Shown here piece by piece: positions 1 to 14,952 of a DNA stretch of 16,591 bases. Made by a program: the position numbers and the translations under genes. Source of the DNA: a virus (Duplodnaviria; Heunggongvirae; Uroviricota; Caudoviricetes); IMG/VR virus record IMGVR_UViG_2718217897_000003. One strand, written 5' to 3'. Below the pieces are notes generated by a model that had not been told where the DNA came from, ran no database searches, and saw only the letters and a list, made by a program, of their open reading frames with translations. Position 1 is the stretch's first letter, and the number at the start of each line of letters is the position of its first letter.

Positions 1-900
1 TTAACGCAACAGTGGACAATCTGGTGGTAATCGACAACGCAACGCTGCCGGAAGTATTTCAATATGAAAATTTTGCCCACTCAACGGTTCGCCATCAAGA
101 TTAAAGGTGATGTCGTGTGGTGCCTGAATATCAAACCACGACGAAGCGCCTTCGATAATATTCGGGTTATCTTCGTCAGATTTTAAGGTTGATACGAGAG
201 CCGGAAGTATTTCATCGCCGGTAAAAATGCGCAGTTGCAGCAAGCCATCGTTAATTAACGCGTTCGGACACAATTGCTGACCGCCACCGGCCTGACGCCC
301 GTTACCAATACCAATGACCAGGGCGTCACCTTGCCAGTGAAAGTTTTCACCGCGGATTTCACAACGGTCCGGTTGCAGAGTATCCATGCGCATTAAGCCA
401 TGAATGATGTAAGAGACGCCACCCAGCGCGGCTTTTAATTTTTCCGGCGTTTCTGTGGTAATACGCGTCCCAAATCCGCCTGTCGCCATATTAATAAAAC
501 AGGTTTGTTTGTTGACCTGCGCCATATCTATCGCAATGGCGTTACCGGCAATTGCCAGTTTCAGCGCCTTATCCAGTGCCTCAGGAATCCCTACACTGGT
601 GGCAAAATCATTGGCGGTTCCTAATGGCAAAATTCCCAGCGCGGGTATGTCATCCCCCTCACACTGAATCAACGCCGTAGAAACTTCATTAATGGTGCCA
701 TCACCACCACCGGCAATCACCGTTGCGACGCCCAACTTCCGGGCCTCCTCTACATATCGTGCGGCATCGCCTTTCTCCCAGGTGACCCGCACATGGATCG
801 TCATTCCTTCCTCACGCAACAGCATAATTGCTTCGCGCAAGGGTAAATTGTCAGTACTTTTGCCATTAAGAATCAGTAAGCTGGCGGGAAATTCTGCCAT
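1..900 (-). CDS. yegS: Lipid kinase YegS (DAG-kinase-like catalytic domain family), host gene
   Basis: The minus ORF 1..1068 contains a 299-aa protein starting [14 protein letters not shown] at the ATG whose complement is at 898-900, with TAA stop at 1-3. It carries the GGGDGT motif ([13 protein letters not shown]) of this kinase family, and I recognise it as E. coli YegS. The 56 codons upstream in the ORF track are in-frame read-through, not protein. Confidence 0.92.
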
Positions 901-1304
901 GATCGTATGTGCCTTTATGATTGGTCTGTAGATAGTGTAGAGCAGAAAAGAAAAGGTGGAGTCAGAACAGGATGAAAGTCGGAGGATAAAAGTCAGTTCA
1001 AGTATGGAGGATTCAGTGGTTACCACCAGGAGCTTGCAATGGGGACAGCGAATACTAACGGCAGCCACCGATAAATTTCAAAAAAGAGAATATACCTAAT
1101 ATTCAACTAAACGGTGGCATCTTCAATATAATATATTAAAGCCCTCATGGAGTTACCCGGAAGGGCCTCCATGTCCGTAATTCCTACTTATGTAGGAAAT
1201 GTTGTACAGAACATTTATTATAATCCTATTCAATTATAATAATCATGCCATTATTATATTTAAACACTAGAGAGTGTCGTTGGTATTTAATGGGGGAAGG
1301 TGAG

Positions 1305-1622
1305 ATGAAAAAGATAGCTGCTATATCATTAATTAGTATTTTTATTATGTCTGGTTGTGCTGTGCATAATGATGAGACAAGTATCGGTAAATTTGGTCTT
1401 GCATATAAAAGTAATATTCAGCGTAAACTCGATAACCAATACTACACCGAAGCCGAAGCTTCTTTAGCCAGGGGTAGAATATCTGGTGCAGAAAATATAG
1501 TAAAAAATGATGCAACTCATTTCTGTGTTACTCAGGGCAAAAAAATGCAAATAGTTGAGCTGAAGACAGAAGGTGTAGGATTACATGGTGTCGCTCGTCT
1601 GACATTCAAATGTGGAGAGTGA
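1305..1622 (+). CDS. yegR: Small predicted lipoprotein YegR (105 aa), host gene divergent from yegS
   Basis: ATG at 1305 is preceded by GAAGGTGAG. The N-terminus MKKIAAISLISIFIMSGC looks like a signal peptide with a lipobox cysteine. I recall this as E. coli YegR. The ORF-track start at 1245 is an upstream in-frame extension. Confidence 0.8.
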   Translation: MKKIAAISLISIFIMSGCAVHNDETSIGKFGLAYKSNIQRKLDNQYYTEAEASLARGRISGAENIVKNDATHFCVTQGKKMQIVELKTEGVGLHGVARLTFKCGE

Positions 1623-1781
1623 GAATATTTTTTGGTAAGCGTCAAATATGCGCGTTCTGGCTGTGCGTAGCCGGAACCTGTGGGAGCACGATGCCGATAA
1701 GTGAAAGGCATCGTGCTATGAAGGAGGATTCTATCGATGTGGTCAATGGAAGACGGTTACCAGAGATAGGGCTTATGCATA

Positions 1782-1808
1782 AAAAAATAAGCCCGTGTAA
1801 GGGATATT
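1782..1808. other. Prophage attL core (P2-type att core; identical to the 3' terminator end of the cyaR sRNA gene)
   Basis: AAAAAATAAGCCCGTGTAAGGGA matches the P2 att core as I recall it and the reverse complement of the cyaR 3' end. Sequence to the right diverges from cyaR and leads into int, so this is the phage-derived duplicate, not a complete cyaR. Confidence 0.7.
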
Positions 1809-1887
1809 TAGGGTGTCACCAGTAGGGGCTTTCAACGGTACAATGCGGGTTTGAGCGGCATAAATTACCACTGAAAGCCCTTAAACG

Positions 1888-2901
1888 TTACTCTACTGTG
1901 GACACTGTGTGGACACTCTCGGCCTCAGTACCACCTCTTAGCGGATTAAGAGAAATGGCGTCCTGAAGGTACTCTGGCGCAAAATGAGCGTAAACCATAG
2001 TTTGCTCAATCCGCGTGTGACCTAGTATCCGTTGTAGCGTGATAATACTTCCTCCATTAATCATGAAATGAGTGGCAAAGCTGTGCCTTAGTGCATGTGT
2101 GGCTTGCCCCGTTGGCAAATCCGGTTTTATTGCTTTCATTGTTCGTCTGAAGCGAGGGTAATCAGCATCAGGGAATAAAAAACCTCGTTTGTTATCCGCG
2201 ATCATTTTGGCAACAGCCTCTGAGATCGGGACGGTGCGTGGTTTGTTTGTTTTCGTTTTAACAAACGTGACGCGGTTATGGATGATATTTTCTGCTTTCA
2301 AACGAGCTGCTTCTCCCCAACGTGCTCCTGTACTCAGGCAAAGAATCGCAATCTTTTTATTGTCGCCGTCAAGTGCTGCAAGCAGTAAGGCAATTTCTTC
2401 CTGTGTGAGATAGCCTGTTTCTGGTTTTTCCTCCTTAAGCCTCTTTGTCCCTCTGATAGGGTGCTCACCAAAGAATAACTCCGCTTCAATCAGGGCTGTA
2501 AACATGCCGCTAATACATGTTAAATCACGATTGATACTCGAAGGTTTAATACCCTGACTTCTTCGGGTGGCGCAGTACTGGCTGATAAGGGATTTCGTGA
2601 TTTGAAATGCGCATGGGTCATTCGTTATTTTTGTGAAGATTTCAATTTTTCCAAGATTAGATTTCCCATGCTCTTCGTGTTTACCCTTTAAATCCCACCA
2701 GATCTGTGTCAGTTCCGACAGACGTCGTTTGTCTGTTGGTTTTGATAGCCATTCTTTATTGTGGTGGTTGTACAACGTGTATTTTTCGAAAGCGACAGCT
2801 TCGCTTTTCTTATCAAACTTCCTACGGATGCGTTTTCCATTACGTCCAGTAGGGCGGATGTCCACTTCATATCGACCATCATCGAGTTTTTTGATTGCCA
2901 T
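1888..2901 (-). CDS. int: P2-type tyrosine integrase (337 aa)
   Basis: Protein MAIKKLDDGRYEVDIRPTGRNGKRIRRKF ... HALRHSFATHFMINGGSIITLQRILGHTRIEQTMVYAHF carries the R..H-x-x-R..Y tyrosine recombinase motifs. GGAGGG lies upstream of the ATG (complement at 2899-2901); stop complement at 1888-1890. It sits next to the att core. Confidence 0.95.
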   Translation of the reverse strand: MAIKKLDDGRYEVDIRPTGRNGKRIRRKFDKKSEAVAFEKYTLYNHHNKEWLSKPTDKRRLSELTQIWWDLKGKHEEHGKSNLGKIEIFTKITNDPCAFQITKSLISQYCATRRSQGIKPSSINRDLTCISGMFTALIEAELFFGEHPIRGTKRLKEEKPETGYLTQEEIALLLAALDGDNKKIAILCLSTGARWGEAARLKAENIIHNRVTFVKTKTNKPRTVPISEAVAKMIADNKRGFLFPDADYPRFRRTMKAIKPDLPTGQATHALRHSFATHFMINGGSIITLQRILGHTRIEQTMVYAHFAPEYLQDAISLNPLRGGTEAESVHTVSTVE

Positions 2902-3016
2902 CAGAAAACCCTCCGAGTGGTACTTTTTTTTGCTACTACTAATCGCTTTTTTCGTGGTGGCTGAAATTTAGCCACCAATAGTAGGCACTTGTGATGAATA
3001 TATTCACGATAAATTG

Positions 3017-3316
3017 TTAACCAGTCTTTTGACCGGAGTGGGGCGACGTTGTTTCGTTTTGCCCAAAGTGTGCGAGAGCGGGCGCAATTTGCCCGGCTTC
3101 TGGAGCTACCTGATCAGTCATGAACCACAAAGTATATTTAGTAAATCTAGGATGTTGTAAGACCTTCATTATGGCTTCAACTCCAGCGTTTTTTGACCGG
3201 CTCTCATAGCTCGAAAGTGAGCTGTAGGCTACACCAGTTAATTCACTGAATTCTTTACGGTTTAACCTTTCAGATTCACGGATTAGCTTCAACTTCTCCG
3301 AAACGTCTATTGACAT
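3017..3316 (-). CDS. C: Immunity repressor, P2 C-like (99 aa)
   Basis: Protein MSIDVSEKLKLIRESERLNRKEFSELTGVAYSSLSSYE ... FTKYTLWFMTDQVAPEAGQIAPALAHFGQNETTSPHSGQKTG. The C-terminal half resembles P2 repressor C as I recall it, and the N-terminal half is helix-turn-helix-like. It is divergent from cox, as in the P2 switch. The ORF-track start at 3388 is an upstream extension. Confidence 0.85.
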   Translation of the reverse strand: MSIDVSEKLKLIRESERLNRKEFSELTGVAYSSLSSYESRSKNAGVEAIMKVLQHPRFTKYTLWFMTDQVAPEAGQIAPALAHFGQNETTSPHSGQKTG

Positions 3317-3393
3317 AATTACTCCGATTGCGTAATTTCTTGCTGATAGTGTGAAATGTTGTGCTTCTGGAGTTATCCTTTTAGGCAATAATT

Positions 3394-3412
3394 AGCCATT
3401 AGGAGCCATTAG
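3394..3412. promoter_or_regulatory. Candidate repressor operator: tandem direct repeat AGCCATTAG x2 with 10-bp period in the C/cox divergent promoter region
   Basis: AGCCATTAG occurs at 3394-3402 and 3404-3412, between the divergent C and cox starts. P2-type repressors bind direct-repeat operators; the assignment is by position and repeat structure only. Confidence 0.4.
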
Positions 3413-3437
3413 AAGCACTAAGGGAGAATCGTAGCAG

Positions 3438-3713
3438 ATGAATAGACAGCTTGTAAGCGTGACTGATGCCGTGCCTTATCAGGAGTTTGCAAAACTCATT
3501 GGTAAAACTCCAAGAGCTGTAAGGGGCATGATTGAGAAAGGGAAATTACCAGTTATTGAGATTACTGACCCTCAGTCAGTATCGGGGCGTGCTGGTGAAT
3601 ATTGGGTATACCTTCCGGCATGGAATAACGGACTAAAACTGGCTTATGAAAGCCGTCCTAAAGAGATTCGTGACGGCTGGTTGATGTGGTTAGGTCTCGG
3701 TGAACCACGTTAA
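3438..3713 (+). CDS. cox: Cox (early-operon repressor/excisionase, 91 aa)
   Basis: Protein ... PYQEFAKLIGKTPRAVRGMIEKGKLPVIEITDPQSVSGRAGEYWVYLPAWNNGLKLAYESRPKEIRDGWLMWLGLGEPR closely matches P2 Cox as I recall it. First gene of the rightward early operon. Confidence 0.9.
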   Translation: MNRQLVSVTDAVPYQEFAKLIGKTPRAVRGMIEKGKLPVIEITDPQSVSGRAGEYWVYLPAWNNGLKLAYESRPKEIRDGWLMWLGLGEPR

Positions 3714-3723
3714 GGAGAACCGT

Positions 3724-3894
3724 ATGAATGAGCCTCGTTGTATTGCTCAGTTATTGCGTAACGAAAGCCCTAGGGCGATTGACTTCACCATCACCCACGG
3801 TAAGGGGCGTAAGGGAATCATTATCCGCACCAAAAAACAGAGTCCGTTAAAAAAGGCTCTGACCTTTCTGAAAAGCCGGAGGGTCTGGAAATGA
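3724..3894 (+). CDS. Small early protein, P2 orf78 position (56 aa)
   Basis: ATG at 3724 with GGAG 9 nt upstream; stop overlaps the B start (ATGA at 3891-3894). Called by position in the P2 early operon. Confidence 0.55.
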   Translation: MNEPRCIAQLLRNESPRAIDFTITHGKGRKGIIIRTKKQSPLKKALTFLKSRRVWK

Positions 3895-4391
3895 CAGTGA
3901 TGACGCTCAATCTCGTTGAAAAACAGCCAGCAGCTATGCGCCGGATAATTGGTAAGCATCTGGCCGTCCCTCGCTGGCAGGAGACATGCGATTATTATAA
4001 TCAGATGATGGAACGCGAACGGCTAACGGTTTGCTTCCATGCGCAGTTAAAACAGCGTCACGCAACGATGCGTTTTGAAGAAATGAACGACGTCGAACGT
4101 GAACGGCTGGTTTGTGCAATTGATGAATTGCGTGGGGCATTCTCAAAACGCCGTCAGGTTGGCGCAAGTGAGTATGCATATATTAGTTTTTTAACAGTCA
4201 GTCAGCGTCGTACTTTATTTATGCATGCCGGATTGACTGAAAAAGAATTCAACCAGCCATACTGGCGAATTAATGAAGAATCATGTTACTGGCGTGATGC
4301 TTTATTCCGTGCATTACGTGAATTATTCAGCCTGTTTGAGTATGCACCGACAATTCTGACGTCGGTAAAACCAGAGCAATATCTGCATTAA
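3891..4391 (+). CDS. B: Replication protein B (helicase-loader-like, 166 aa)
   Basis: 166-aa product MTVMTLNLVEKQPAAMRRIIGKHLAVPRWQETCDYYNQMMERERL..., matching P2 gpB in size, position and, as I recall it, sequence. Confidence 0.88.
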   Translation: MTVMTLNLVEKQPAAMRRIIGKHLAVPRWQETCDYYNQMMERERLTVCFHAQLKQRHATMRFEEMNDVERERLVCAIDELRGAFSKRRQVGASEYAYISFLTVSQRRTLFMHAGLTEKEFNQPYWRINEESCYWRDALFRALRELFSLFEYAPTILTSVKPEQYLH

Positions 4392-4454
4392 ATAATTAAC
4401 CAGAGTTTTTAATGCACTTAATCGTGCGGGGCTTCTTTTTGCCTGGAGAAAGTC

Positions 4455-4679
4455 ATGCATACAGTTTCTGAAAACAAGTGCGGTAAATACGCATTACTGC
4501 TGCAACAGGCCAGAGCCGAAGCACATGCCGACGCAGCGACACGCTTTTCTTCTCATCTTGACGCCATGATTCGCCATATCACAAAGGCGGAGTTATCCCG
4601 CGTGGAGATAGTCGAGCTGCTCAGTCAGGAGTCGGAAAAATTTCACAATATCGGATTGTCTCGCGGGGAGGTGCTTTGA
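4455..4679 (+). CDS. Hypothetical early protein, P2 orf80 position (74 aa)
   Basis: ATG at 4455; stop overlaps the next start (TGATG). Conserved position between B and A. Confidence 0.6.
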
Positions 4680-4978
4680 TGTCCTGTTCTCATTCAGTTG
4701 TATTACTGAATAACGCCTTAAAAATCGCCGTTATGAAAAATGGCGATTTGTCTCTTATTCAACTTTGCCTTGATAAAGAAAAACGCGACATAACTGAATC
4801 TGTTATCGCGATTTATCAGAATGAATTAAACCTCCTGTCTGATGTGGTCAATTTACTTGTTAAACGCGCTGTATTCCACAAGCAAATTTCCTCAGTGGAT
4901 GAACTGACAAAATTAACGACAGAACTTGCCAGTTATTGCGCTGATGTATCCAGGAAACTTAACGATAAAAGGAGCTGA
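4679..4978 (+). CDS. Hypothetical early protein, P2 orf81 position (99 aa)
   Basis: ATG at 4679 overlaps the upstream stop; the ORF-track start at 4676 is a TTG one codon earlier. AAAAGGAG near its 3' end serves the next gene. Confidence 0.6.
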   Translation: MSCSHSVVLLNNALKIAVMKNGDLSLIQLCLDKEKRDITESVIAIYQNELNLLSDVVNLLVKRAVFHKQISSVDELTKLTTELASYCADVSRKLNDKRS

Positions 4979-4980
4979 TA

Positions 4981-5205
4981 ATGCCGGACAACGTAGATTT
5001 TATTCAGGAACAACAGGCTGAATTACTGGAGCGCCAGATTAACGCGGCAAGGGTAAAACATTGCGGTGCTTCTGCGCTGGTTTGCGAAGAGTGTAACGCG
5101 CCAATACCTGCTGCCCGTCGTGCGGCTTACCCGTCAGCCACGCGTTGTGTTTCCTGTCAGTCAGTCTTTGAAGCAAAAAACAAACATTACCGGAGAACGG
5201 CATGA
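4981..5205 (+). CDS. DksA/TraR-type C4 zinc-finger protein, P2 orf82 position (74 aa)
   Basis: AAAGGAG precedes the ATG at 4981. Four cysteines in CxxC ... CxxC arrangement (HCGASALVCEECNAPIPAARRAAYPSATRCVSCQ). Confidence 0.75.
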   Translation: MPDNVDFIQEQQAELLERQINAARVKHCGASALVCEECNAPIPAARRAAYPSATRCVSCQSVFEAKNKHYRRTA

Positions 5206-5477
5206 GTATTCGTATTGAAATTGGCGAACGTTATGTCGTTACCAGTGACAGCTTTCAGTTTATTCTCCACGAGAAAAAGAGAGCGGAAAGCGGTAAAAAC
5301 GCCGGTCAGGAATGGCTGGCGGTGGTTGGTTATTACCCGAAATTAAGCCAGCTCGTTTCCGGCCTGATGCATCACGATATTCTTACCGGAAGCGCAAAGT
5401 CTTTTGCTGATTTAAACGCGCAGGTTGAGCAACTCAGCAAGCGTTGTTCAGAGGCTTTTGGCTCATATGGCCGTTAA
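5202..5477 (+). CDS. Hypothetical early protein, P2 orf83 position (91 aa)
   Basis: ATGA overlap with the orf82 stop; its 3' end overlaps the A start by 11 nt. Confidence 0.7.
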   Translation: MSIRIEIGERYVVTSDSFQFILHEKKRAESGKNAGQEWLAVVGYYPKLSQLVSGLMHHDILTGSAKSFADLNAQVEQLSKRCSEAFGSYGR

Positions 5478-7749
5478 AGCCTCCGGGCGTTTTGTCCCTC
5501 CGTCAGCATTTGCCGCAGGCACCGGTAAGACGTTTACCGGTGCTTATGCATGGAACGCGCCACGCGAGGCCGTCGGGCGCGAAAGACCCCTTACACGTGA
5601 CGAGATGCGTCAGGTGCAAGGTGTTTTATCCACGATTAACCGCCTGCCTTACTTTTTGCGCTCGCTGTTTACTTCACACTATGACTACATCCGGCGCAAT
5701 AAAAGCCCGGTGCACGGGTTTTATTTCCTCACATCCACTTTTCAGCGTCGTTTATGGCCGCGCATTGAGCGTGTGAATCAGCGCCATGAAATGAACACCG
5801 ACGCGTCGTTGCTGTTTCTGGCAGAGCGTGACCACTATGCGCGCCTGCCGGGAATGAATGACAAGGAGCTGAAAAAGTTTGCCGCCCGTATCTCATCGCA
5901 GCTTTTCATGATGTATGAGGAACTCAGCGATGCCTGGGTGGATGCACATGGCGAAAAAGAATCGCTGTTTACGGATGAGGCGCAGGCTCACCTCTATGGT
6001 CATGTTGCTGGCGCTGCACGTGCTTTCAATATTTCCCCGCTTTACTGGAAAAAATACCGTAAAGGACAGATGACCACGAGGCAGGCATATTCTGCCATTG
6101 CCCGTCTGTTTAACGATGAGTGGTGGACTCATCAGCTCAAAGGCCAGCGTATGCGCTGGCATGAGGCGTTACTGATTGCTGTCGGGGAGGTCAATAAAGA
6201 CCGTTCTCCTTATGCCAGTAAACATGCCATTCGTGATGTGCGTGCACGCCGCCAGGCAAATCTGGAATTTCTTAAATCGTGTGATCTCGAAAACAGGGAA
6301 ACCGGCGAGCGCATCGACCTTATCAGTAAGGTGATGGGCAGTATTTCTAATCCTGAAATTCGCCGGATGGAGCTGATGAACACCATTGCCGGTATTGAGC
6401 GTTACGCCGCAGCAGAGGGTGATGTGGGGATGTTTATCACGCTGACCGCGCCGTCAAAGTATCACCCGACACGTCAGGTTGGAAAAGGCGAAAGTAAAAC
6501 CGTCCAGCTAAATCACGGCTGGAACGATGAGGCATTTAATCCAAAGGATGCGCAGCGTTATCTCTGCCGTATCTGGAGCCTGATGCGCACGGCATTCAAG
6601 GATAATGATTTACAGGTCTACGGTTTGCGTGTCGTCGAGCCACATCACGACGGAACGCCGCACTGGCATATGATGCTTTTTTGTAATCCGCGCCAGCGTA
6701 ACCAGATTATCGAAATCATGCGTCGCTATGCGCTCAAAGAGGATGGCGACGAAAGAGGAGCCGCGCGAAACCGTTTTCAGGCAAAACACCTTAATCGGGG
6801 CGGTGCTGCGGGGTATATCGCGAAATACATCTCAAAAAACATCGACGGCTATGCACTGGATGGTCAGCTCGATAACGATACCGGCAGACCTCTGAAAGAT
6901 ACTGCCGCGGCTGTTACTGCATGGGCGTCAACGTGGCGCATCCCGCAATTTAAAACGGTTGGTCTGCCGACAATGGGGGCTTACCGTGAACTACGCAAAT
7001 TGCCTCGCGGCGTCAGCATTGCTGATGAGTTTGACGAACGCGTCGAGGCTGCACGCGCTGCCGCAGACAGTGGCGATTTTGCGTTGTATATCAGTGCGCA
7101 GGGTGGGGCAAATGTTCCGCGCGATTGCCAGACTGTCAGAGTCGCCCGTAGCCCGTCGGATGAAGTTAACGAGTACGAGGAAGAAGTCGAGAGAGTGGTC
7201 GGCATTTACGCGCCGCATCTCGGCGCGCGTCATATTCATATCACCAGAACGACGGACTGGCGCATTGTGCCGAAAGTTCCGGTCGTGGAGCCTTTGACTT
7301 TAAAAAGCGGCATCGCCGCGCCTCGGAGTCCTGTCAATAACTGTGGAAAGCTCACCGGTGGTGATACTTCGTTATCGGCTCCCACACCGACTGAGCATGC
7401 TGCAGCGGTGTTAAATTTTATAGATGAAGGGATTCTAAGTTGGACCGAGCCAGGCATTATGAAGGTACTTAGAGACTTATTGAGTAATGAACTGAAATGC
7501 AGTAATCGTTCACAGCAGAGCTTTACTCCTTTCAATGGTCGAAGCTACTTTCCTGCCCCATCCGCCCGGTTGACAAGGCAGGAGAGAAAGACTATCCCGA
7601 AAATTAAGGTTCTTCTTGCACAAAGTGACATTCAGGCTAGTTATTGGGAGCTTGAAGCTCTCGCTCGCGGAGCTGTTTTGGATTTTGGGCATAAGCGTTT
7701 TAAATTTGATACCGATATCGACTTTTTTGACAGACAGCGTGAGTGGTAG
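5467..7749 (+). CDS. A: Replication initiation protein A (rolling-circle initiator, 760 aa)
   Basis: Protein starts MAVKASGRFVPPSAFAAGTGKTFTGAYAWNAPREAVGRERPLTRDEMRQ at the ATG at 5467 and carries an HxH-like motif (TPHWHMMLF) and a tyrosine-rich GYIAKYISKN region typical of gpA-family initiators. The ORF-track start at 5425 is an extension. The last 110 codons or so are AT-richer than the rest. Confidence 0.92.
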   Translation: MAVKASGRFVPPSAFAAGTGKTFTGAYAWNAPREAVGRERPLTRDEMRQVQGVLSTINRLPYFLRSLFTSHYDYIRRNKSPVHGFYFLTSTFQRRLWPRIERVNQRHEMNTDASLLFLAERDHYARLPGMNDKELKKFAARISSQLFMMYEELSDAWVDAHGEKESLFTDEAQAHLYGHVAGAARAFNISPLYWKKYRKGQMTTRQAYSAIARLFNDEWWTHQLKGQRMRWHEALLIAVGEVNKDRSPYASKHAIRDVRARRQANLEFLKSCDLENRETGERIDLISKVMGSISNPEIRRMELMNTIAGIERYAAAEGDVGMFITLTAPSKYHPTRQVGKGESKTVQLNHGWNDEAFNPKDAQRYLCRIWSLMRTAFKDNDLQVYGLRVVEPHHDGTPHWHMMLFCNPRQRNQIIEIMRRYALKEDGDERGAARNRFQAKHLNRGGAAGYIAKYISKNIDGYALDGQLDNDTGRPLKDTAAAVTAWASTWRIPQFKTVGLPTMGAYRELRKLPRGVSIADEFDERVEAARAAADSGDFALYISAQGGANVPRDCQTVRVARSPSDEVNEYEEEVERVVGIYAPHLGARHIHITRTTDWRIVPKVPVVEPLTLKSGIAAPRSPVNNCGKLTGGDTSLSAPTPTEHAAAVLNFIDEGILSWTEPGIMKVLRDLLSNELKCSNRSQQSFTPFNGRSYFPAPSARLTRQERKTIPKIKVLLAQSDIQASYWELEALARGAVLDFGHKRFKFDTDIDFFDRQREW

Positions 7750-7784
7750 TTGAAAAAACGGTTGAACGGGGTAACAATATGTTA

Positions 7785-7814
7785 TTGTTGAGGAATTGTT
7801 TGTTATGGTTTAAT
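7785..7814 (+). promoter_or_regulatory. Candidate sigma70-like promoter for the cargo operon (-35 TTGTTG 7785-7790, -10 TTTAAT 7809-7814), overlapping a palindrome
   Basis: Hexamers with 18-bp spacing about 25 bp upstream of the 7838 ATG; palindrome AACAATA-tgt-TATTGTT at 7773-7789. Pattern match only. Confidence 0.3.
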
Positions 7815-7837
7815 TTTTATACACGGCAGAAAAGCAT

Positions 7838-9061
7838 ATGAGCATGGTTGAATGGATAAGCCACGAGAAAAAAGATAGCCTGATACTATTTGTACATGGA
7901 TTAAATGGTGGTTTGGAAACATGGAACTTTAATAAAGAAATTTCATTTCCAAAACTATTAGCAGAAGATGAAGATATTAGCAACGTATTTGATATTGCAT
8001 GTTTCAATTATTTTACTAAATTCACACAAACGTATGCTAAAACGTCAGGATTCTTGGCTCGTATTTTCTTTAAGAAAAATAAGTTAGAGAGAAATTTACC
8101 AACTGATGAAATAGCTGAGTTATTGTATACTGAGATTAGAGTAACACTAAGTGATTACTCTCGAATTATAATAATCGCCCATAGTATGGGGGGGTTAATA
8201 TCAAAAAATCTAATTCTAAAAAAAGTTGAGCATGAGGAACAATCTAATATAATTGGATTCATTTCGTTAGCAGTCCCTCACTTTGGTGCTAAATTAGCGA
8301 ATATAACTTCAATGGTATCTTCAAATGCTCAGTTAGTAGATCTTGGATTGTTAAGTGAAGCGACTGATACATTGAATAGGCGCTGGATAAATTGTAGCAA
8401 AAAACTTCCTATCACTAGATATGTTTATGGATCTCATGACACTATAGTCGATAAAAAAAGCGCATTACCGATGGATAGTGAACGACATAACTCAATTGCA
8501 GTTAATGAAGGGCATAGCTCAATTTGCAAGCCCGAAAATAGCTCGTCTACAGTGTTTGTTGCGGTAAAGCAATTTATTCAGCAGATAAATTTAGAAGCAC
8601 CCAAGAAGATTTGCGTTGAGCGTTTTTCTGATGATAAACAATATGATAATGAGTATTTCGTCTTAAAAATGATTGTCGCAGATATACATCAGGATATCGC
8701 TCTGCATGCAAAGGAATATTATTATAATGCTGAGCTTGCGAGAAATATTTTTACGAGTGATTACGATAGAAAACAACTTGGTCATTTGTATTCTAAAATA
8801 AGGGAGATTTACCAGGAAGAGTATGAGCAATACATTGCAAATTCAATTTCCCCAGATAAATTTATTGCTGCTGTTCATAGACGAATAACCCAGGAGGATA
8901 AGTCGTCGTTAGATTCTCTTATAAAAAGTTTGGAAACGATACATAAGAAAGGAATGTTGCATCAACTGGCTAACAAAAATGACAGGGATATTGTCTGGTC
9001 ATCTGAAACCAGCGTAGAAACTTTGGAGCAATTACGGCGAGGTAATCATGAAGAAAAATAA
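7838..9061 (+). CDS. Cargo protein 1: lipase-like alpha/beta serine hydrolase with C-terminal helical domain (407 aa), candidate defense effector
   Basis: AT-rich ORF. Oxyanion-hole-like HGLNGG (res 20-25), nucleophile elbow AHSMGG (Ser116, the pentapeptide of Bacillus lipase A), candidate acid Asp201 (YGSHDTIVD) and His226 (NEGHSSI), in the canonical order. The C-terminal 150 residues or so are helical and K/E-rich. The stop overlaps the next gene by 14 nt. Confidence 0.75.
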   Translation: MSMVEWISHEKKDSLILFVHGLNGGLETWNFNKEISFPKLLAEDEDISNVFDIACFNYFTKFTQTYAKTSGFLARIFFKKNKLERNLPTDEIAELLYTEIRVTLSDYSRIIIIAHSMGGLISKNLILKKVEHEEQSNIIGFISLAVPHFGAKLANITSMVSSNAQLVDLGLLSEATDTLNRRWINCSKKLPITRYVYGSHDTIVDKKSALPMDSERHNSIAVNEGHSSICKPENSSSTVFVAVKQFIQQINLEAPKKICVERFSDDKQYDNEYFVLKMIVADIHQDIALHAKEYYYNAELARNIFTSDYDRKQLGHLYSKIREIYQEEYEQYIANSISPDKFIAAVHRRITQEDKSSLDSLIKSLETIHKKGMLHQLANKNDRDIVWSSETSVETLEQLRRGNHEEK

Positions 9062-9560
9062 CTTGCCGTATATACCTCTTGATGAAGAGTATAGTTTGAA
9101 TTTTGCTATGCTTGCCATTGCTATATCTATATTATCTCATAGCAAAAAAGGAGTGTTGTCATTAGATATTAATAAAATACAAATTTTTATGTATCTGATA
9201 AAAAATCCATCAAAAATTGATTGTGCTCTTACAGTTTCGGGGAAAAAGCCTGCTTGTGTCGAGTCCCAGTTAACTTATACAATAAAGAGTTTTTCATCAA
9301 ATGTAGATATCTTATTCGACAATTCCAAAGTGAAATATCTTATAAAAATTATGTCATTGCGGGGATTGCTCTCAGCTGAGAAAAAAAATAATGAGAGTGT
9401 TAAATTATTTTTATCTGAAAAAGGTAAGGAATTTGCTAGCTCATTGACTGATGGATATTTTAAAGAAATAAAACGACTAGCCGAAGCATTGTTACCGCTA
9501 CAAGCATTGCCTACCTCTAAGTTAAACTCTGTTATAAACAAAGTCTTCAAGGAGAAATGA
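9048..9560 (+). CDS. Cargo protein 2: small 170-aa protein of unknown function, possible adaptor or kleisin-like middle component
   Basis: ATG at 9048 lies inside the 3' end of gene 1, and ATGA overlaps gene 3 at 9557-9560, indicating translational coupling in one operon. AT-rich; no motif recognised by eye. Confidence 0.7.
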   Translation: MKKNNLPYIPLDEEYSLNFAMLAIAISILSHSKKGVLSLDINKIQIFMYLIKNPSKIDCALTVSGKKPACVESQLTYTIKSFSSNVDILFDNSKVKYLIKIMSLRGLLSAEKKNNESVKLFLSEKGKEFASSLTDGYFKEIKRLAEALLPLQALPTSKLNSVINKVFKEK

Positions 9561-11527
9561 TGAAATCATATCTCAATATCAATAGTTTGATTCTTGTTGG
9601 CGTTCGTAAAAACTACGTCACTACTTTTTATAAAGGTCTCAATGTTATCTACGGAGACTCTGACACAGGTAAGTCAAGTATTCTGGAGTTTATTAATTAT
9701 CTTTTAGGTGCTAGTTCTATAGATTTAGCAGATGAAATAAAAACATCAGTAAACTATGCTGCTCTTGAAGTAGTGATCAATGATACTGTATTCACAATCG
9801 TAAGAGATATCTATGATCATAAAAAATCAATAGAAGTTTATCGTTGTAAGTTTGATGATTTACATAAACACTTTCCGAAAAAATACGCCCCTAATTATAG
9901 CCCCTTATCAAATGTTGATGGCGTTTTTTCGGAGTTTTTACTTGATAGTCTTAATTTTCCAAAAATTGAAATTAAGGTGTCTCCTTCTAAAGCACATTCA
10001 CAGATGCGCAGGTTAAGCTTTAGAAATATATATAAATTTGTTTATGTAAGTCAGGATGATATTGGTAGTAAATCATTCTTACGATTGGAGGATTGGTCCC
10101 GTTACGCATTTACGAAAGAAGTTTTTAAATACATGTTCAATGTGTTGGATGAAAGCATCGCCAGACTCCAAGGTGAAATATCTGCAAAAAGTAGTTTAGT
10201 AACGGAACTAAATAAGAAGTATCAGATAATATCTGAATTTCTTCGCGATACAGACTATGAAACAATTGAATCAATTGATGATGAGATTAATAGGATAGAT
10301 CTTATTTTAGAAGAACTTGTTGCAGGTTTGTCTGCTCTCGATAAAAATATGAAAGCGGATTCCATGCAGTATACAGAATTGAAAGATGCCCACAATTTTA
10401 TTTCGCTTAAATACAAGGAGTGCATATTAAATATTAGCACGCTTGAGGATAAGATTGATAAATATTCGCGGTTAAAAAATGACTATGATAATGATATTGA
10501 AAAACTCAAAGCGATTAAAACAGCAAATTCTCGCATTGGTGTATTGGATAAGGAAGTATTTTCCTGTCCGATCTGTGATAGCCACATTAAAATAGATGAT
10601 TCCGATTTTCCATTTGAAATTTCATCAGAAAAAGATCTTAATGAAGAGTTGAATTCACTTAGTCGACGTAGACGAAATATTAATGACATGATCTCAGAAA
10701 TGTCATTTAAATTAAAAAAAGAATCTGGTTATAAAAAAGAATTAGATGAACAACTTGACGAGTTGAGAGAGTTAATTGACGAAGAAAGCCAGTCAATGAT
10801 TACACCATTCTTGACTCAGAGAGATTTTTATATTAAAGAGATATCAAAAAACGAGAAGGTTAGGGAGCAGTTAGTAAAAGATTTGAAGGTTAGAAACCAG
10901 CAAGAGGAACTGCTTGAAAAGCATCAGGTACTGATAAAAGATATTGAAACATTAACTGAACGCTTGGATGCGTTAAAGAAAAACGCACCTAGTATGGAAG
11001 GCATTTTACAAGGTTTAGGTGATAGATTTAGTCAGTATTTGAAGGGTATTAATATCAAAAACAGAACGGGGATAAAAATCTCTGAAAGATATTACACCCC
11101 TGTTATAAGAGGAAAGGAATATTTTAAAATAACGTCCGGAGGTTTGAGAACTATTTCTTCTATTGGGTATCTTTTGTCTATTCTTGATTATGCAATAGAC
11201 CATAATGTTAACCATCCTTTACTTTTGATATTTGATACGGTTGGTAAATATTTAGGGAAACAGACCAAGGAAAAATACTCAAAAGAAACTCTTGCAGTCG
11301 AGGATGACCTTGAGGGGATGTCAGACCCGATGAAGTATCAAAATATTTATGAGCAACTATTGAATACAGTTCAAAAAGCAGAAAGAAAAAATGTTCCGTG
11401 CCAGATTATATTAGTTGATAATGATTTGCCTAATTCGTTTTCTACTGGTGAACTTTCGAATATTATCGCTCATTATAGCTCGGTTGGTGAGGATGGTTTG
11501 CCTTTAGGTTTAATTGATGACCTTTAA
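9557..11527 (+). CDS. Cargo protein 3: SMC/Rad50/SbcC-like ABC ATPase with coiled coil and CxxC hook (656 aa)
   Basis: N-terminal Walker A GDSDTGKSS (K39), Q-loop-like VSQDD (Q166), a charged heptad-rich segment of about 350 residues with a single CPIC (C337/C340) near its middle, signature-like TSGG (526-529) and Walker B-like LLLIFD (555-560). Confidence 0.8.
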   Translation: MMKSYLNINSLILVGVRKNYVTTFYKGLNVIYGDSDTGKSSILEFINYLLGASSIDLADEIKTSVNYAALEVVINDTVFTIVRDIYDHKKSIEVYRCKFDDLHKHFPKKYAPNYSPLSNVDGVFSEFLLDSLNFPKIEIKVSPSKAHSQMRRLSFRNIYKFVYVSQDDIGSKSFLRLEDWSRYAFTKEVFKYMFNVLDESIARLQGEISAKSSLVTELNKKYQIISEFLRDTDYETIESIDDEINRIDLILEELVAGLSALDKNMKADSMQYTELKDAHNFISLKYKECILNISTLEDKIDKYSRLKNDYDNDIEKLKAIKTANSRIGVLDKEVFSCPICDSHIKIDDSDFPFEISSEKDLNEELNSLSRRRRNINDMISEMSFKLKKESGYKKELDEQLDELRELIDEESQSMITPFLTQRDFYIKEISKNEKVREQLVKDLKVRNQQEELLEKHQVLIKDIETLTERLDALKKNAPSMEGILQGLGDRFSQYLKGINIKNRTGIKISERYYTPVIRGKEYFKITSGGLRTISSIGYLLSILDYAIDHNVNHPLLLIFDTVGKYLGKQTKEKYSKETLAVEDDLEGMSDPMKYQNIYEQLLNTVQKAERKNVPCQIILVDNDLPNSFSTGELSNIIAHYSSVGEDGLPLGLIDDL

Positions 11528-11655
11528 TACTATACATGCATTTTTTTGAATTAGATTGCATGTGGATAATGAGTCTATTTAGTGAAGGGAAGGTTTTGTG
11601 TGACGTGACTTTCGATAAAATTCAACCGCATTAAAACCGCCCCATGAAGCGGGCG

Positions 11656-11674
11656 GGCGAGGCGGGGAAAGCAC
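11656..11674. other. cos site (19-nt cohesive-end sequence GGCGAGGCGGGGAAAGCAC) with flanking G/T-rich repeats
   Basis: The 19-mer matches the P2 cohesive end as I recall it, lying between the end of the rightward operon and the 3' end of Q, where cos sits in a P2 prophage. G/T-rich reiterated motifs follow at about 11700-11815. Confidence 0.65.
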
Positions 11675-11815
11675 TGCGCGCTGGCGGTGGTGCTGATTTT
11701 ATTTTTTAGCGTCTCAGCGCGTCGTGATGGCGTTTAGATTGTGCGCCGGGGCGTTGGTGTGTCTGCGGGGTGTTTTGTGCGGTGGTGAGCGTGTGAGGGC
11801 GTGATGACGGGGTGT

Positions 11816-11837
11816 AAAAAAGCCGCCCGCAGGCGGC
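11816..11837 (-). terminator. Rho-independent terminator downstream of Q (minus strand)
   Basis: GCCGCC-cgca-GGCGGC hairpin at 11822-11837, preceded on the plus strand by AAAAAA (a U-run on the minus strand after the stem), immediately 3' of the Q stop at 11843-11845. Confidence 0.55.
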
Positions 11838-11842
11838 GATGT

Positions 11843-12814
11843 TCAGCCGTTGTCAGTGTCCAGTGAGTAGTTTTTAAAGCGGATGACCTCCTGACCGAGC
11901 CAGCCGTTTATCTCACGGATCCTGTCCTGTAACGGGATAAGCTCATTGCGGACAAAGACCTTTGCCACTTTCTCAATATCACCCAGCGACCCGACGTTCT
12001 CCGGCTTGCCGCCCATCAACTGAAAGGGGATGCGGTGCGCGTCCAGCAGGTCTGCGGCACTGGCTTTTTTGATATTAAAAAAATCGTCCTTCGTCGCCAC
12101 TTCACTGAGCGGGATAATTTTAATGCCGTCGGCTTTTCCCTGTGGGGCATAGAGAAACAGGTTTTTAAAGTTGTTGCGGCCTTTCGACTTCACCATGTTT
12201 TCGCGAAGCATTTCGATATCGTTGCGATCCTGCACGGCATCAGTGACGTACATGATGTATCCGGCATGTGCGCCGTTTTCGTAATACTTGCGGCGGAACA
12301 GCGTGGCCGACTCATTCAGCCAGGCAGAGTTAAGGGCGCTGAGATATTCCGGCAGGCCGTACAGCTCCTGATTAATATCGGGCTCCAGCAGGTGAAACAC
12401 GGAACCGGGCGCGAAGGCTGTCGGTTCGTTGAAGGACGGCACCCACCAGTAAACATCCTCCTCCACGCCACGGCGGGTATATTTTGCCGGTGAGGTTTCC
12501 AGTCTGATGACCTTACCGGTGGTGCTGTAACGCTTTTCCAGAAACGCATTACCGAACACCAGAAAATCCAGCACAAAGCGGCTGAAATCCTGCTGGGAAA
12601 GCCACGGGTGCGGGATAAACGTTGAAGCCAGAATATTACGTTTGACGTAAATCGGTGAGCTGTGATGCACGGCAGCACGCAGACTTTTTGCCAGACCGGT
12701 AAAGCTGACCGGTGGCTCATACCATCTGCCGTTACTGATGCATTCGACGTAATCCAGAATGTCACGGCGGTCGAGTACCGGCACTGGCTCACCATGCTGA
12801 AAAATCAGCTTCAT
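11843..12814 (-). CDS. Q: Portal protein Q (323 aa as encoded here; 5' end abuts a deletion junction, possibly N-terminally truncated)
   Basis: Minus-strand ORF with host-like GC content in the expected place and orientation next to cos. From memory P2 Q is about 344 aa, so about 20 codons may be missing. Sequence directly upstream of its ATG is lysB-derived rather than gene P. Confidence 0.8.
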   Translation of the reverse strand: MKLIFQHGEPVPVLDRRDILDYVECISNGRWYEPPVSFTGLAKSLRAAVHHSSPIYVKRNILASTFIPHPWLSQQDFSRFVLDFLVFGNAFLEKRYSTTGKVIRLETSPAKYTRRGVEEDVYWWVPSFNEPTAFAPGSVFHLLEPDINQELYGLPEYLSALNSAWLNESATLFRRKYYENGAHAGYIMYVTDAVQDRNDIEMLRENMVKSKGRNNFKNLFLYAPQGKADGIKIIPLSEVATKDDFFNIKKASAADLLDAHRIPFQLMGGKPENVGSLGDIEKVAKVFVRNELIPLQDRIREINGWLGQEVIRFKNYSLDTDNG

Positions 12815-13075
12815 GTTGCGCTCACCAGGGCAGACAAAAACGAGCTGGCGCAGGTGGCACTGCGTCAGGAACTGGAAAACGCCGCGAAGCGTGAAGCTCA
12901 GCGCGAGAAAACCATCACGAGATTACTCAATGAAAACGAAGATTTCCGCCGCTGGTATGGCGCTGACCTGCCTGATGCTGTGCGCCGGTTGCACCAGCGC
13001 CCCGCCTGCACCGACGCCAGTGATTGTCCACAACGCCTGCCCGAAAGTGAGTCTTTGCCCGATGCCGGGCAGTGA
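12815..13075 (+). pseudogene. lysB: lysB remnant (Rz-like spanin, 3' portion only)
   Basis: The frame ending at 13075 encodes ...ALTRADKNELAQVALRQELENAAKREAQREKTITRLLNENEDFRRWYGADLPDAVRRLHQRPACTDASDCPQRLPESESLPDAGQ, but upstream of about 12815 the same frame is antisense to Q. There is no lysB start or N-terminal transmembrane region. The 5' boundary is approximate (plus or minus 30 nt). Confidence 0.6.
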
Positions 13076-13220
13076 CCCGCAGACGAACGGCGATTTAAGT
13101 GCCGATATCCGGCAGCTTGAGAACGCGCTGGCACGCTGTGCCAGCCAGGTAAAAATGATTAAACACTGTCAGGACGAAAACGATGCTCAAACCCGACAGC
13201 CTGCGCAGGGCGCTGACTGA
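12930..13220 (+). CDS. lysC: LysC (Rz1-like outer-membrane lipoprotein spanin, 96 aa), embedded in the lysB frame region
   Basis: MKTKISAAGMALTCLMLCAGCTS has a signal peptide and lipobox Cys; the rest is proline-rich. Embedded out of frame in lysB as in P2. Likely non-functional without full LysB. Confidence 0.7.
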   Translation: MKTKISAAGMALTCLMLCAGCTSAPPAPTPVIVHNACPKVSLCPMPGSDPQTNGDLSADIRQLENALARCASQVKMIKHCQDENDAQTRQPAQGAD

Positions 13221-13650
13221 TGCCGTCACGGTGCTGAAAACTAACCCCGATATGCTTCGGATATTCGTGGATAACGGGAGTATTGCCTCCACACTGGCGA
13301 CGTCGCTGTCATTCGAAAAGCGTTACACGCTCAATGTCATTGTGACCGATTTTACCGGTGATTTTGACCTGCTCATCGTGCCGGTGCTGGCGTGGCTGCG
13401 GGAAAATCAGCCCGACATCATGACCACCGACGAAGGCCAGAAAAAAGGCTTCACGTTTTATGCAGACATCAACAATGACAGCAGCTTTGATATCAGTATC
13501 AGCCTGATGCTGACCGAACGCACGCTGGTCAGTGAGGTGGGCGGCGCGCTGCATGTGAAGAATATCCCGGAACCCCCGCCGCCGGAGCCGGTCACCCGCC
13601 CGATGGAGCTTTATATCAATGGCGAACTGGTGAGTAAGTGGGATGAATGA
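13183..13650 (+). CDS. R: Tail completion protein R (155 aa)
   Basis: MLKPDSLRRALTDAVTVLKTNPDMLRIFVDNGS... matches P2 gpR in sequence as I recall it, and in size and position. Confidence 0.9.
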   Translation: MLKPDSLRRALTDAVTVLKTNPDMLRIFVDNGSIASTLATSLSFEKRYTLNVIVTDFTGDFDLLIVPVLAWLRENQPDIMTTDEGQKKGFTFYADINNDSSFDISISLMLTERTLVSEVGGALHVKNIPEPPPPEPVTRPMELYINGELVSKWDE

Positions 13651-14095
13651 GTTTAAGCGTTTTGAAGACCGGCTGACCGGGCTGATTGAATCGCTGTCAC
13701 CGTCAGGGCGTCGGCGACTGAGCGCCGAACTGGCGAAACGTCTGCGTCAGAGTCAGCAGCGTCGGGTGATGGCACAGAAAGCCCCGGACGGCACCCCCTA
13801 CGCGCCACGTCAGCAGCAGAGCGCCAGAAAAAAGACCGGTCGCGTTAAGCGAAAAATGTTTGCGAAACTTATTACCAGTCGTTTTTTGCATATCCGCGCC
13901 AGCCCGGAACAGGCATCAATGGAATTTTACGGCGGGAAGTCGCCGAAAATCGCCAGTGTGCATCAGTTCGGTCTGTCGGAAGAAACCCGGAAAGACGGTA
14001 AGAAAATTGATTATCCGGCGCGTCCTCTGCTCGGCTTTACCGGTGAGGATGTGCAGATGATTGAAGAGATTATCCTGGCTCACCTTGAGCGTTAG
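13643..14095 (+). CDS. S: Tail completion protein S (150 aa)
   Basis: MNEFKRFEDRLTGLIESLSPSGRRRLSAELAKRLRQSQQRRV... matches P2 gpS as I recall it; start overlaps the R stop. Confidence 0.9.
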   Translation: MNEFKRFEDRLTGLIESLSPSGRRRLSAELAKRLRQSQQRRVMAQKAPDGTPYAPRQQQSARKKTGRVKRKMFAKLITSRFLHIRASPEQASMEFYGGKSPKIASVHQFGLSEETRKDGKKIDYPARPLLGFTGEDVQMIEEIILAHLER

Positions 14096-14166: not shown

Positions 14167-14952
14167 TTATGAGTGATTTTTATTTGATGCTTTGTATTCT
14201 ACAACCTTCTTATTGGCGTAAAGGAATTTTGTATATGACAGGAATATAACCAGACCTGAAATGAAATAGATGAGGGATATTATTAATAATGCTTTTTTTT
14301 GGCTGTTATTATCTTTAATTTCCTGACTTAACCATTCCGAGTCCTCCTCGTTTAGCTGTAAGAGCTTATTGCAGGCGATCTCAGGAAGTGTGTCTTTTAT
14401 AAATATGTTTCGTAGCCTCTTGCAATCGGCAAGGCTATAAGTTTTATTGAATTCAACTGTTTTATTGTTGAAGGATAAAAGAACTTTGTCACTATAAACA
14501 TAGTACATCATATTTTTATATGGTATGCCTATGGCATCTCTTACTATAGCGGATTGTTTGTTGTGTATATAACATGCGAAGAGAATATAAATAATGCTGG
14601 ACAGAATTACAATTATTGTTTTAATTATGTGTGGTGGTTTTGTTATGTCACCCCAGAAGCGAGTAAGAAAAAAATACGATGTTTTTAGTTTTCCATCAAT
14701 CAGCCCCTGCTGTATCATTCTCACATCTTCGATGCCTGATACATTGATTCCGTTAATTATTTTAAATAGTTGAATGTCGCGCCATTTTTTGTCGAGCATT
14801 TTTAACTTTCTGTCTGAATACTCAAAATTGAAATGATGTGCAATAAACCTCATAAGATTACTTTTACCAAAGGTAATAAATGTTAATGCTATTAATAAAA
14901 ATAGATACAAAGAGATAAACCACCACGCATTAGTCACATTATCACTGAACAT
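14167..14952 (-). CDS. AT-rich cargo gene: 261-aa integral membrane protein (about 3 predicted TM helices), unknown function, in the S-V slot (P2 orf30 position)
   Basis: ATG complement at 14950-14952 with GAGGAG 8 nt upstream on the minus strand. Hydrophobic segments WWFISLYLFLLIALTFITF, IIVILSSIIYILFACYI and ALLIISLIYFISGLVIFLSY. Opposite strand to the flanking tail genes. Confidence 0.8.
   Translation of the reverse strand: MFSDNVTNAWWFISLYLFLLIALTFITFGKSNLMRFIAHHFNFEYSDRKLKMLDKKWRDIQLFKIINGINVSGIEDVRMIQQGLIDGKLKTSYFFLTRFWGDITKPPHIIKTIIVILSSIIYILFACYIHNKQSAIVRDAIGIPYKNMMYYVYSDKVLLSFNNKTVEFNKTYSLADCKRLRNIFIKDTLPEIACNKLLQLNEEDSEWLSQEIKDNNSQKKALLIISLIYFISGLVIFLSYTKFLYANKKVVEYKASNKNHS

Follow-up and report, generated by a model that had tools for sequence, protein, structure and literature searches.

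Gene A of the P2-like prophage present in the 16,591-nucleotide stretch of viral DNA analyzed here (IMG/VR record IMGVR_UViG_2718217897_000003, Caudoviricetes; the whole stretch is called the window below, and all positions are given in its coordinates) encodes the rolling-circle replication initiator gpA, and the 3' end of this gene is very probably a recombination junction, where a P2-type backbone received a segment from a distant P2-like phage. The open reading frame (ORF) extends over 5467..7749 on the plus strand, which also carries the other features of A and the cargo genes described below. It codes for 760 amino acids, matches the Pfam family Phage_GPA and corresponds to the RefSeq annotation 'replication endonuclease'. 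The chimeric protein is 91% identical as a whole to P2 gpA (NP_046795, 761 amino acids), with 98.9% identity over the first 640 residues and 42.7% over the C-terminal module.

At single-base resolution, the window does not deviate from the P2-type consensus up to and including position 7374, shows nine mismatches in 7375-7414 and is only about 50% identical beyond that point. The crossover interval (7375..7414, residues ~637-650) is thus delimited by the end of the consensus identity at 7374 and by the ends of the megablast alignments at 7414-7430, and corresponds to a variable linker that separates the ori-coding motif from the C-terminal module. In the megablast search of 50,697 phage records, the alignments with P2 and about 77 other records, which were 97-98% identical, ended at 7414 in nearly all cases and at 7427-7430 in a few (29982-29997 in P2 coordinates). 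A sensitive blastn search performed with 7380-7840 against the phage records yielded nothing but one 92-nt match with 74% identity. In a sliding comparison with 80 related loci, the identity falls from ~0.97 to ~0.5 at 7387-7447. The proportion of synonymous differences per site relative to P2 (pS) amounts to 0.072 in the N-terminal part and 0.87, a saturated value, in the C-terminal part, the corresponding nonsynonymous values (pN) being 0.005 and 0.415. Among 23 species-representative homologues, the identities of the N- and C-terminal parts to P2 vary together (98%/93-96%, 76-81%/60-68%, and 62-67%/40-52%), and the window, with 98.9%/42.7%, is an outlier of this relation. The sequence-only reading of this DNA had suggested that the last 100 codons or so of A were swapped with the downstream cargo, giving a mosaic C-terminus. 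The alignments with P2 gpA and with P2-like prophages carrying other cargo support this suggestion, since the identity is not uniform up to the stop codon but drops off at 7375-7414, and the foreign DNA then runs unbroken into the cargo. The idea of a replacement together with the cargo therefore stands, while its size and nature have to be refined: the exchange involves ~112-125 codons, and the foreign part is a divergent homologue of the gpA module rather than arbitrary cargo DNA read in frame.

The same reading had started from the composition, describing the A frame as AT-richer from about 7400 and the upstream part as GC-rich, and both statements were confirmed by the G+C profile. The G+C content of A decreases from 0.535 (5467-7414) to 0.436 (7415-7749), and locally from 0.571 in 7000-7414 to 0.426 in 7420-7560, while the G+C content at the third codon position decreases across the split from 0.549 to 0.411. 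In the upstream part of A, every 335-nt stretch has a G+C content of at least 0.484. The values are lower still in the 88-nt spacer between A and the cargo (7750..7837; 0.318) and in the cargo itself (7838-11527; 0.33). A two-segment likelihood scan placed the maximum-likelihood change point at 7411, with a maximum log-likelihood ratio of 6.4, which was matched in 3% of 5,000 codon shuffles, and a Fisher test in which the split was fixed by homology (7415) gave P = 0.0009. P2's own gene A shows no drop of this kind (0.534 vs 0.521), and in 76 other P2-like A genes the matching segment has a G+C content of 0.455-0.547, each value being above that of the window. The G+C shift is decisive because the change point coincides with the break of homology.

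The P2-type part of A (5467..7374) contains the catalytic core and the ori-coding stretch, and is 98.9% identical to P2 in amino acids and ~97-98% in nucleotides (dS 0.076 and dN 0.005, the synonymous and nonsynonymous divergence, respectively). The Phage_GPA domain (PF05840) was found at residues 134-463 (5863-6852), with an E-value of 7.1e-124 and all 321 profile positions covered. It includes the YxxxY tyrosine pair, in the sequence GAAGYIAKYISK at 6802-6837, which is the same as in P2; the two tyrosines are Tyr450 (6814-6816) and Tyr454 (6826-6828) in the numbering of the P2 gpA active site reportedly used by Odegrip and Haggard-Ljungquist (2001). The core of ori is located within A (7317..7346), where it encodes the invariant motif APRSPVNNCG. 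The 'nick site at ori' annotated in P2 (P2 29892) was carried over to position 7325 via the gap-free alignment with P2, and the nick sequence therefore sits in A's own coding region; over 7291-7374, the window shows no difference from the P2-type consensus. In 20 distant Enterobacterales homologues (from Enterobacter, Buttiauxella, Rahnella, Serratia, Pectobacterium, Brenneria, and others), the N-terminal parts of which are 62-81% identical to P2, this core is nearly invariant at the nucleotide level, synonymous sites included: each position is the same in at least 85% of the loci, and most positions in all of them. Divergence among these homologues begins at 7347, and no common single-nucleotide polymorphisms (SNPs) were found in 7288-7350 in the related P2-like loci. 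The order along gpA is thus the core, the ori-coding motif APRSPVNNCG, a hypervariable linker of ~20-25 residues, and the C-terminal module. The junction sits in this linker, 50-90 nt to the right of the nick, and since the crossover took place after the nick, the chimera retains the catalytic core and the ori of one parent and the downstream module of the other. The window gpA therefore shares with P2 gpA the Phage_GPA domain, Tyr450/Tyr454, an identical ori nick sequence, and the same overall architecture, and differs from it in its C-terminal module (~111 codons), which is ~43% identical and AT-richer. A G+C-rich hairpin (GCGGC-ATC-GCCGC, 7307-7319), which was picked up on the minus strand by the terminator scan, lies a few bases 5' of the ori nick and falls in the nucleotide-conserved ori block.

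The foreign module (7415..7749) consists of 111 codons and the stop codon. It is homologous to the P2 module up to the stop codon, and the two lengths are equal within one residue. The motifs APSARLT..ER and WELEALARGA are both kept, and the residues APSARLT, ER, and W-E-L..L.RGA are invariant or nearly so across the relatives, while the terminal tail of the DEWPGF type found in P2 is replaced by DIDFFDRQREW. The C-terminal module has a higher evolutionary rate than the remainder of A in all the P2-like phages (dN/dS 0.31 vs 0.046; dS 0.29 vs 0.10). In the AlphaFold model of the last 127 amino acids, the mean predicted local distance difference test (pLDDT) score is 73, with a confident helix-helix-hairpin at residues 704-746 and a disordered stretch at residues 678-690. 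A Foldseek search of the PDB with the module model gave no match with an E-value below 1, a sequence search of the PDB with the whole gpA gave no match, and neither Pfam nor NCBIfam includes a model for the gpA C-terminal module. The gpA ORF is intact in 95 E. coli genomes, including an apparently complete O157:H7 prophage, and the chimeric gpA is presumably functional.

The module shows only 37-48% amino acid identity to every other gpA found. Its donor was searched for in the 50,697 phage records (by performing blastn with 'distant' settings and tblastn), in two scans of species-representative genomes, in IMG/VR by means of a cargo search, in a full HMMER scan of 1.84 billion representative proteins, and in a word-indexed protein search, none of these collections of phage records, genomes, and proteins yielding anything closer than 45-50%. 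The word-indexed search returned P2-type partial fragments only and missed the query's own cluster, and in the representative library a donor with a gpA more than 50% identical overall would hide in the P2 cluster. The fact that the foreign part is a full-length, divergent homologue of the module suggests that the donor was another, distant P2-like phage, and its distance is also indicated by the fact that the window module is as far from the P2 module as those of phages with an N-terminal part 62-67% identical to P2. The donor was probably a distant, as yet unsampled peduovirus with a lower G+C content. One apparent closer hit to the module, at 77-80% (P0020, a Logan contig of 913 nt corresponding to about 7000-7560), was rejected: it is the same gene with C-to-T artefacts. 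Its changes are systematic (A>V, P>L/F, T>I, R>C, and H>Y) and mimic a divergent homologue; the contig is probably derived from reads of E. coli B-type DNA that had undergone bisulfite or deaminase conversion.

From A, the foreign DNA extends without any break into the cargo and up to about 11627, 28 nt short of cos, and amounts in all to ~4.25 kb (~7375 to 11627). Downstream of the spacer, the cargo comprises a gene encoding an LmuA-type effector with an alpha/beta-hydrolase N-terminal part and an ABC-3C CTD8 (7838..9061; Pfam CTD8 9e-36 and DUF676/PGAP1/Abhydrolase, PADLOC LmuA 1e-108), a gene encoding LmuC, the ABC-3C middle component 4 (9048..9560; Pfam MC4 4.5e-27, PADLOC LmuC 3e-52), and a gene encoding LmuB, an SMC/Rad50-like ABC ATPase (9557..11527; PADLOC LmuB 1e-233 and weak SMC/Rad50/RecF matches). 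Judging from the LmuA-LmuC-LmuB order and the strong profile matches to all the components, 7838-11527 is a three-gene Lamassu/ABC-3C defence operon with a predicted anti-phage function; this membership concerns the cargo only, and the window effector is predicted to be an LmuA of the hydrolase/lipase type. Scanning the surroundings of the junction for promoters and terminators gave no hit beyond chance, a weak sigma-70-like match at 7750-7778 being at chance level. On the right side, homology to other P2-like phages resumes at 11618..11628: in more than 2,000 E. coli genomes that carry P2-like prophages, the match to the window is restored only from these positions on, and the alignment with P2 is back at 11628 (P2 33547). 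The cohesive-end sequence of cos, GGCGAGGCGGGGAAAGCAC (11656..11674), is an exact match to P2 cosL/cosR. The cassette is therefore located between gene A and cos/Q, with P2 homology on both sides (3460-7430 and 11628-12794). A diversity-generating or local hypermutation system was also considered as a candidate and rejected: the differences include all kinds of substitutions as well as small indels, and the cargo genes are those of Lamassu, none of them encoding a reverse transcriptase (no search for repeats was made).

The A allele and the cargo travel together in E. coli. The allele (7431-7749), the cargo, and a piece spanning the junction are each present in 95 of the 5,426 complete E. coli genomes, the cargo and allele counts being compared as totals and not matched by accession; the A-cargo junction itself is present in all 95 allele carriers. 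These genomes are those of E. coli B derivatives, an O157:H7 clade, and a few others. The backbones carrying the same cassette and allele in IMG/VR number at least three and differ in their early or immunity regions (L004 and L005, for example); an apparently complete O157:H7 prophage carries this combination as well. The mosaic is older than the divergence of ~2.6% between the B and O157 copies.

Other P2-like phages show the same tendency. A survey of alleles and cargo was carried out on 82 A genes (those of 80 IMG/VR loci, P2, and the window), in which the first 1,950 nt of A are ~97% identical pairwise, while the last 335 nt fall into 36 alleles as against 38 cargo classes, with a nearly one-to-one correspondence. 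The cargo varies behind flanks which are ~97% identical (38 classes in 82 loci, and 58 classes in 106 loci), and the 3' ~400 nt of A covary with the cargo in about 100 other P2-like loci. In most of the alleles the module is still of the P2 type, the differences being restricted to the part following WELEALARGA or to the last codons. The junctions in the other loci are located at ~7457-7484, at ~7560 (L175), at ~7655, or in the last codons; none of them lies to the left of ori, and that of the window is the deepest found. In five IMG/VR loci (L125, L144, L181, L170, and L136), A leaves the P2-type sequence inside the module (~7457-7630) and ends at an early stop codon, and each of these loci has its own cargo; all five lack the conserved APSARLT...WELEALARGA core, and in the first three the switch occurs at ~7457-7484, with early stops that remove this core.

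The associations between cargo class and SNPs were assessed without the window's own allele, in a sample of about 100 loci giving 74-80 same-cargo pairs that are not independent; a second IMG/VR sample, including eight same-cargo pairs among loci new to the analysis, was pooled with the first. Among the common SNPs in 6300-7199, only 3/69 were associated with the cargo class (P<0.05). This proportion then rises along the end of the gene, from 3/9 in 7351-7416 to 14/19 in 7417-7500, 19/26 in 7501-7600, and 26/29 in 7601-7660, which makes 62 of the 83 SNPs over 7351-7660 together. At the other end of the hotspot, sites up to 11643 are strongly associated, and from 11684 on, to the right of cos, 4/60 SNPs are. 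The cargo-linked block of the P2-like phages therefore runs approximately from ori to cos, with a sharp right edge and a graded and ragged left one. The endpoints of the identical tracts shared by same-cargo pairs did not pile up at the ori nick, and we therefore do not claim that the nick site is a hotspot.

These data fit a process in which a distantly related P2-like phage would have donated the segment between ~7375 and 11627 to an ancestor with a P2-type backbone. The segment comprises the gpA C-terminal module, the AT-rich Lamassu (ABC-3C) operon, and further DNA ending 28 nt short of cos, and the G+C drop would reflect the lower G+C content of the donor. The left crossover lies in the short variable linker following the ori embedded in A, and the right end coincides with the conserved cos region. 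The product is a chimeric initiator, combining a P2-type, HUH-type Phage_GPA core (Tyr450/Tyr454) and the matching P2-type ori with a foreign but homologous module. We infer that phages or prophages residing in the same cell exchanged the segment by homologous recombination, that is to say by ordinary recombination between P2-like genomes, in which the right end would be fixed at or near cos and the left crossover would be variable, extending into A but never past ori. P2 gpA is known to act in cis. Because of this, the ori and the catalytic part presumably have to stay matched, and this pair would set the leftward limit of the exchange.

Several points weigh against this reading. No donor lineage was found, and with the nearest modules only 45-50% identical, the direction and the source of the transfer are deduced rather than observed. 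The composition by itself is only moderately significant (P = 0.03). In the comparison with L084, the module differs by ~1% (4 nt) between the B and O157 copies, as against 2.5-3% (~2.6%) in the remaining part of A, in the cargo, and in the right flank, and three of the four module differences are non-synonymous, which is too few to establish purifying selection on the chimera. The A genes of some relatives are truncated within the module, which may mean either that the module is dispensable or that the prophages with a truncated A are dead or unable to replicate. The prophage in the window is itself defective, and the function of the chimeric gpA is not to be assumed for this copy.

An attractive alternative is that the P2 hotspot might be a cassette lying between two cis sites cut by enzymes, ori being nicked by gpA and cos being cut by the terminase, and swapped by replicational release, or, in a weaker variant, that the module might be matched to the cargo. 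If true, the cassette with two cis sites would explain the very fast turnover of the hotspot without any homologous recombination; as a general account, however, it is unlikely. Applied to the present junction, a site-specific exchange between ori and cos seems distinctly unlikely: co-resident P2-like genomes would join by their identical cohesive ends, replication would start from one ori and be terminated by gpA at the other, and the monomer released would have the ori-to-cos part of one parent and the rest of the other. In line with this idea, the cargo-linked block is bounded by ori and cos; the SNPs in 6711-7287 are unassociated with the cargo (1/55), the association starting at 7351, the first SNP to the right of the nick; and on the other side the association, at ~0.9-1.0 up to 11643, is gone by 11684-11715, these sites bracketing cos (11656-11674). 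The origins of rolling-circle single-stranded DNA (ssDNA) viruses are also documented recombination hot spots where 'replicational release' is involved (PMC3187698), and a role of the cos ends has already been the subject of speculation in a passage of Rousset et al. (PMC9122126). In the larger pooled set, however, the left side shows a gradient and no step, the median association being 0.24, 0.33, 0.49, 0.53, and 0.93 from 7200 to 7660, and the identical tracts shared by same-cargo pairs end mostly at 7417-7759, without accumulating at ori. The junctions are ragged, none of them being demonstrably at the nick, and that of the window is 50-90 nt to the right; the sample itself consists of about 100 loci with 74-80 non-independent pairs, and the independent subset of eight pairs. 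The data therefore do not favour exchange by replicational release. The likeness to the ssDNA viruses (PMC3187698) consists in the Rep-type initiator, the conserved nick, and the presence of a recombination boundary close by, whereas P2 is a 33-kb double-stranded DNA phage and the junctions seen here are near the nick and not at it, with no demonstrable excess at the nick.

It is also conceivable, although improbable, that the gpA module has been selected together with the cargo, so that, for example, the rolling-circle replication of the phage would neither trigger nor be blocked by its own Lamassu system. LmuB is an SMC/Rad50-like sensor of DNA structures, the allele and the cargo co-occur in 95 genomes and on at least three backbones, the A ends and cargo classes of the other phages form pairs which are nearly one-to-one, and the B and O157 copies differ less in the module than in the flanking DNA. 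However, only 88 nt separate the module from the cargo, so their linkage is to be expected without any selection, and the association decays with distance as in neutral hitch-hiking. Allele C1, which includes P2, occurs with eight cargo classes, and several cargo classes occur with more than one A end. The cargo-specific tails vary in length and sequence, as junction debris would, and some relatives do not have the core of the module.

Divergence of the module in place, under relaxed or diversifying selection or under the effects of a local mutator and without any transfer, is very improbable. The faster evolution of the module in all the P2-like phages (dN/dS 0.31 vs 0.046) would be in agreement with it, but the synonymous saturation is confined to the right side of a boundary less than 40 nt wide, which excludes such a process; the third-position G+C content shifts there, substitutions of every type occur, the divergent block runs on into the non-homologous cargo, no intermediates occur among ~180 loci or 1,606 E. 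coli genomes, and the window is an outlier in the relation between the N- and C-terminal identities. Judging from the sequences compared, this possibility is effectively refuted by the sharp edge of the saturated synonymous divergence. A chance fluctuation in the composition, which the change-point statistic alone (P = 0.03) might still have allowed, is hardly conceivable and can be taken as refuted by the homology data, since the change point at 7411 coincides with an independent break of homology at 7375-7414 and the drop is absent in P2 and 76 other alleles.

A recombination junction of the kind proposed agrees with what is known about temperate phages, whose mosaicism classically involves junctions at gene or domain boundaries and relaxed homologous recombination. 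The window shares with these cases the abrupt change from ~98% identity to unalignable DNA at a module boundary, and nothing essential differs; it can be described as classical mosaicism in which a cis-acting origin within the gene would set the limit. The P2 'old/tin' hotspot is said to have been described by Odegrip in 2006, and a 2026 preprint on the silencing of immunity loci by H-NS reportedly mentions Lamassu, P2-like phages, and BL21 together, and may concern the window cassette.

The A-to-Q locus of P2-like phages, close to cos, ranks among the richest reservoirs of anti-phage systems known, and is dealt with as a defence hotspot ('old/tin') in the relevant parts of Rousset 2022 (PMC9122126), Vassallo 2022 (PMC9519451), and a 2026 survey in Nucleic Acids Research (PMC13586616). 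The window has in common with this hotspot the genomic position, the AT-rich cargo, the defence content, and the right edge by cos. In the passages concerned, these studies and the iLund4u preprint set the limits of the hotspot at whole genes and take gpA for a conserved flank, whereas in the present data gpA is not an intact outer flank: the cargo-linked DNA begins at 7375 in the window, and in the relatives between ~7350 and the stop codon. The relevant passages of these four sources make no mention of an intragenic A junction or of the origin, and an earlier description in the older P2 literature, which is outside this set, is possible. The mechanism of the fast A-Q turnover is left open in the corresponding sections of Rousset 2022 (PMC9122126) and the 2026 survey (PMC13586616). 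The window case adds a new allele to a known locus and clearly exemplifies a known process, namely real but fairly ordinary mosaicism, and is otherwise an ordinary mosaic junction in a well-sequenced background (the E. coli B lineage and O157:H7). The more general point, which is modestly new, is that the hotspot begins inside gene A, just after ori, and ends at cos. Delimiting the hotspot by genes misses ~100-400 nt of cargo-linked DNA as well as a variable protein module encoded by an essential replication gene. A cheap marker of the cargo type is available in the 3' end of A, and the ori-to-cos interval gives a concrete geometry for the mechanism of exchange.

The prophage in the window is integrated beside yegR/yegS. 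Its alignment with P2 DNA consists of four blocks, listed here by window coordinates: 1782-3146 (attachment core and int), 3460-7430 (from cox to most of A, 96.4% identity), 11628-12794 (28 nt before cos, cos, and part of Q), and 12789-13728 (lysB to S). On the minus strand, the backbone to the right of the hotspot carries the truncated portal gene Q (11843..12794), which is 96% identical to P2 up to P2 coordinate 1138 and is then joined to P2 8061. This deletion at 12789-12794 fuses P2 1138, in the portal gene Q, to 8061, in lysB, so that P2 1139-8060 is lost, including the Q N-terminus, P, O, N, M, L, X, Y, K, and lysA, which makes the prophage defective. In CP029371, a close relative with a different deletion, the region equivalent to Q is annotated as an incomplete portal protein; in this 'strain C' copy (L003), the deletion is larger and extends from 12601 to 13934. 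Window 7300-7850 is 100% identical in the E. coli B strains REL606 and ATCC 11303 and in the strain labelled 'C' from milk. The prophage of the O157:H7 strain F690 is apparently complete (full-length), occupies the same chromosomal site, and is 98% identical to the window over 1-12794.

Apart from the hotspot, three further features were observed. Between the first two blocks, 3146-3460 (which covers the C repressor gene in its 5' part and the intergenic control region between C and cox) shows no detectable DNA similarity to P2, with flanks which are 96-98% identical; this pattern indicates that the immunity type predicted for the window prophage differs from that of P2, the repressor at 3017-3316 on the minus strand being an HTH_3 protein. 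A second AT-rich island (14167-14952, minus strand, G+C 0.31-0.36) occupies the P2 orf30 position between S and V and contains a 261-amino-acid ORF with no PADLOC hit and with only a DUF6535 match in Pfam, below the curated cutoff; this island may be the cargo of another P2 hotspot. Lastly, many complete E. coli chromosomes are numbered with base 1 at the ATG of a P2-like gene A (window 5467), and the same piece of A is found at record coordinates 1834-1949 in CP029371, CP148363, CP124374, CP101222, CP184114, AP040168, CP098904, and JALDNN01; it looks as if genome-rotation software had taken the prophage 'replication' gene in place of dnaA.

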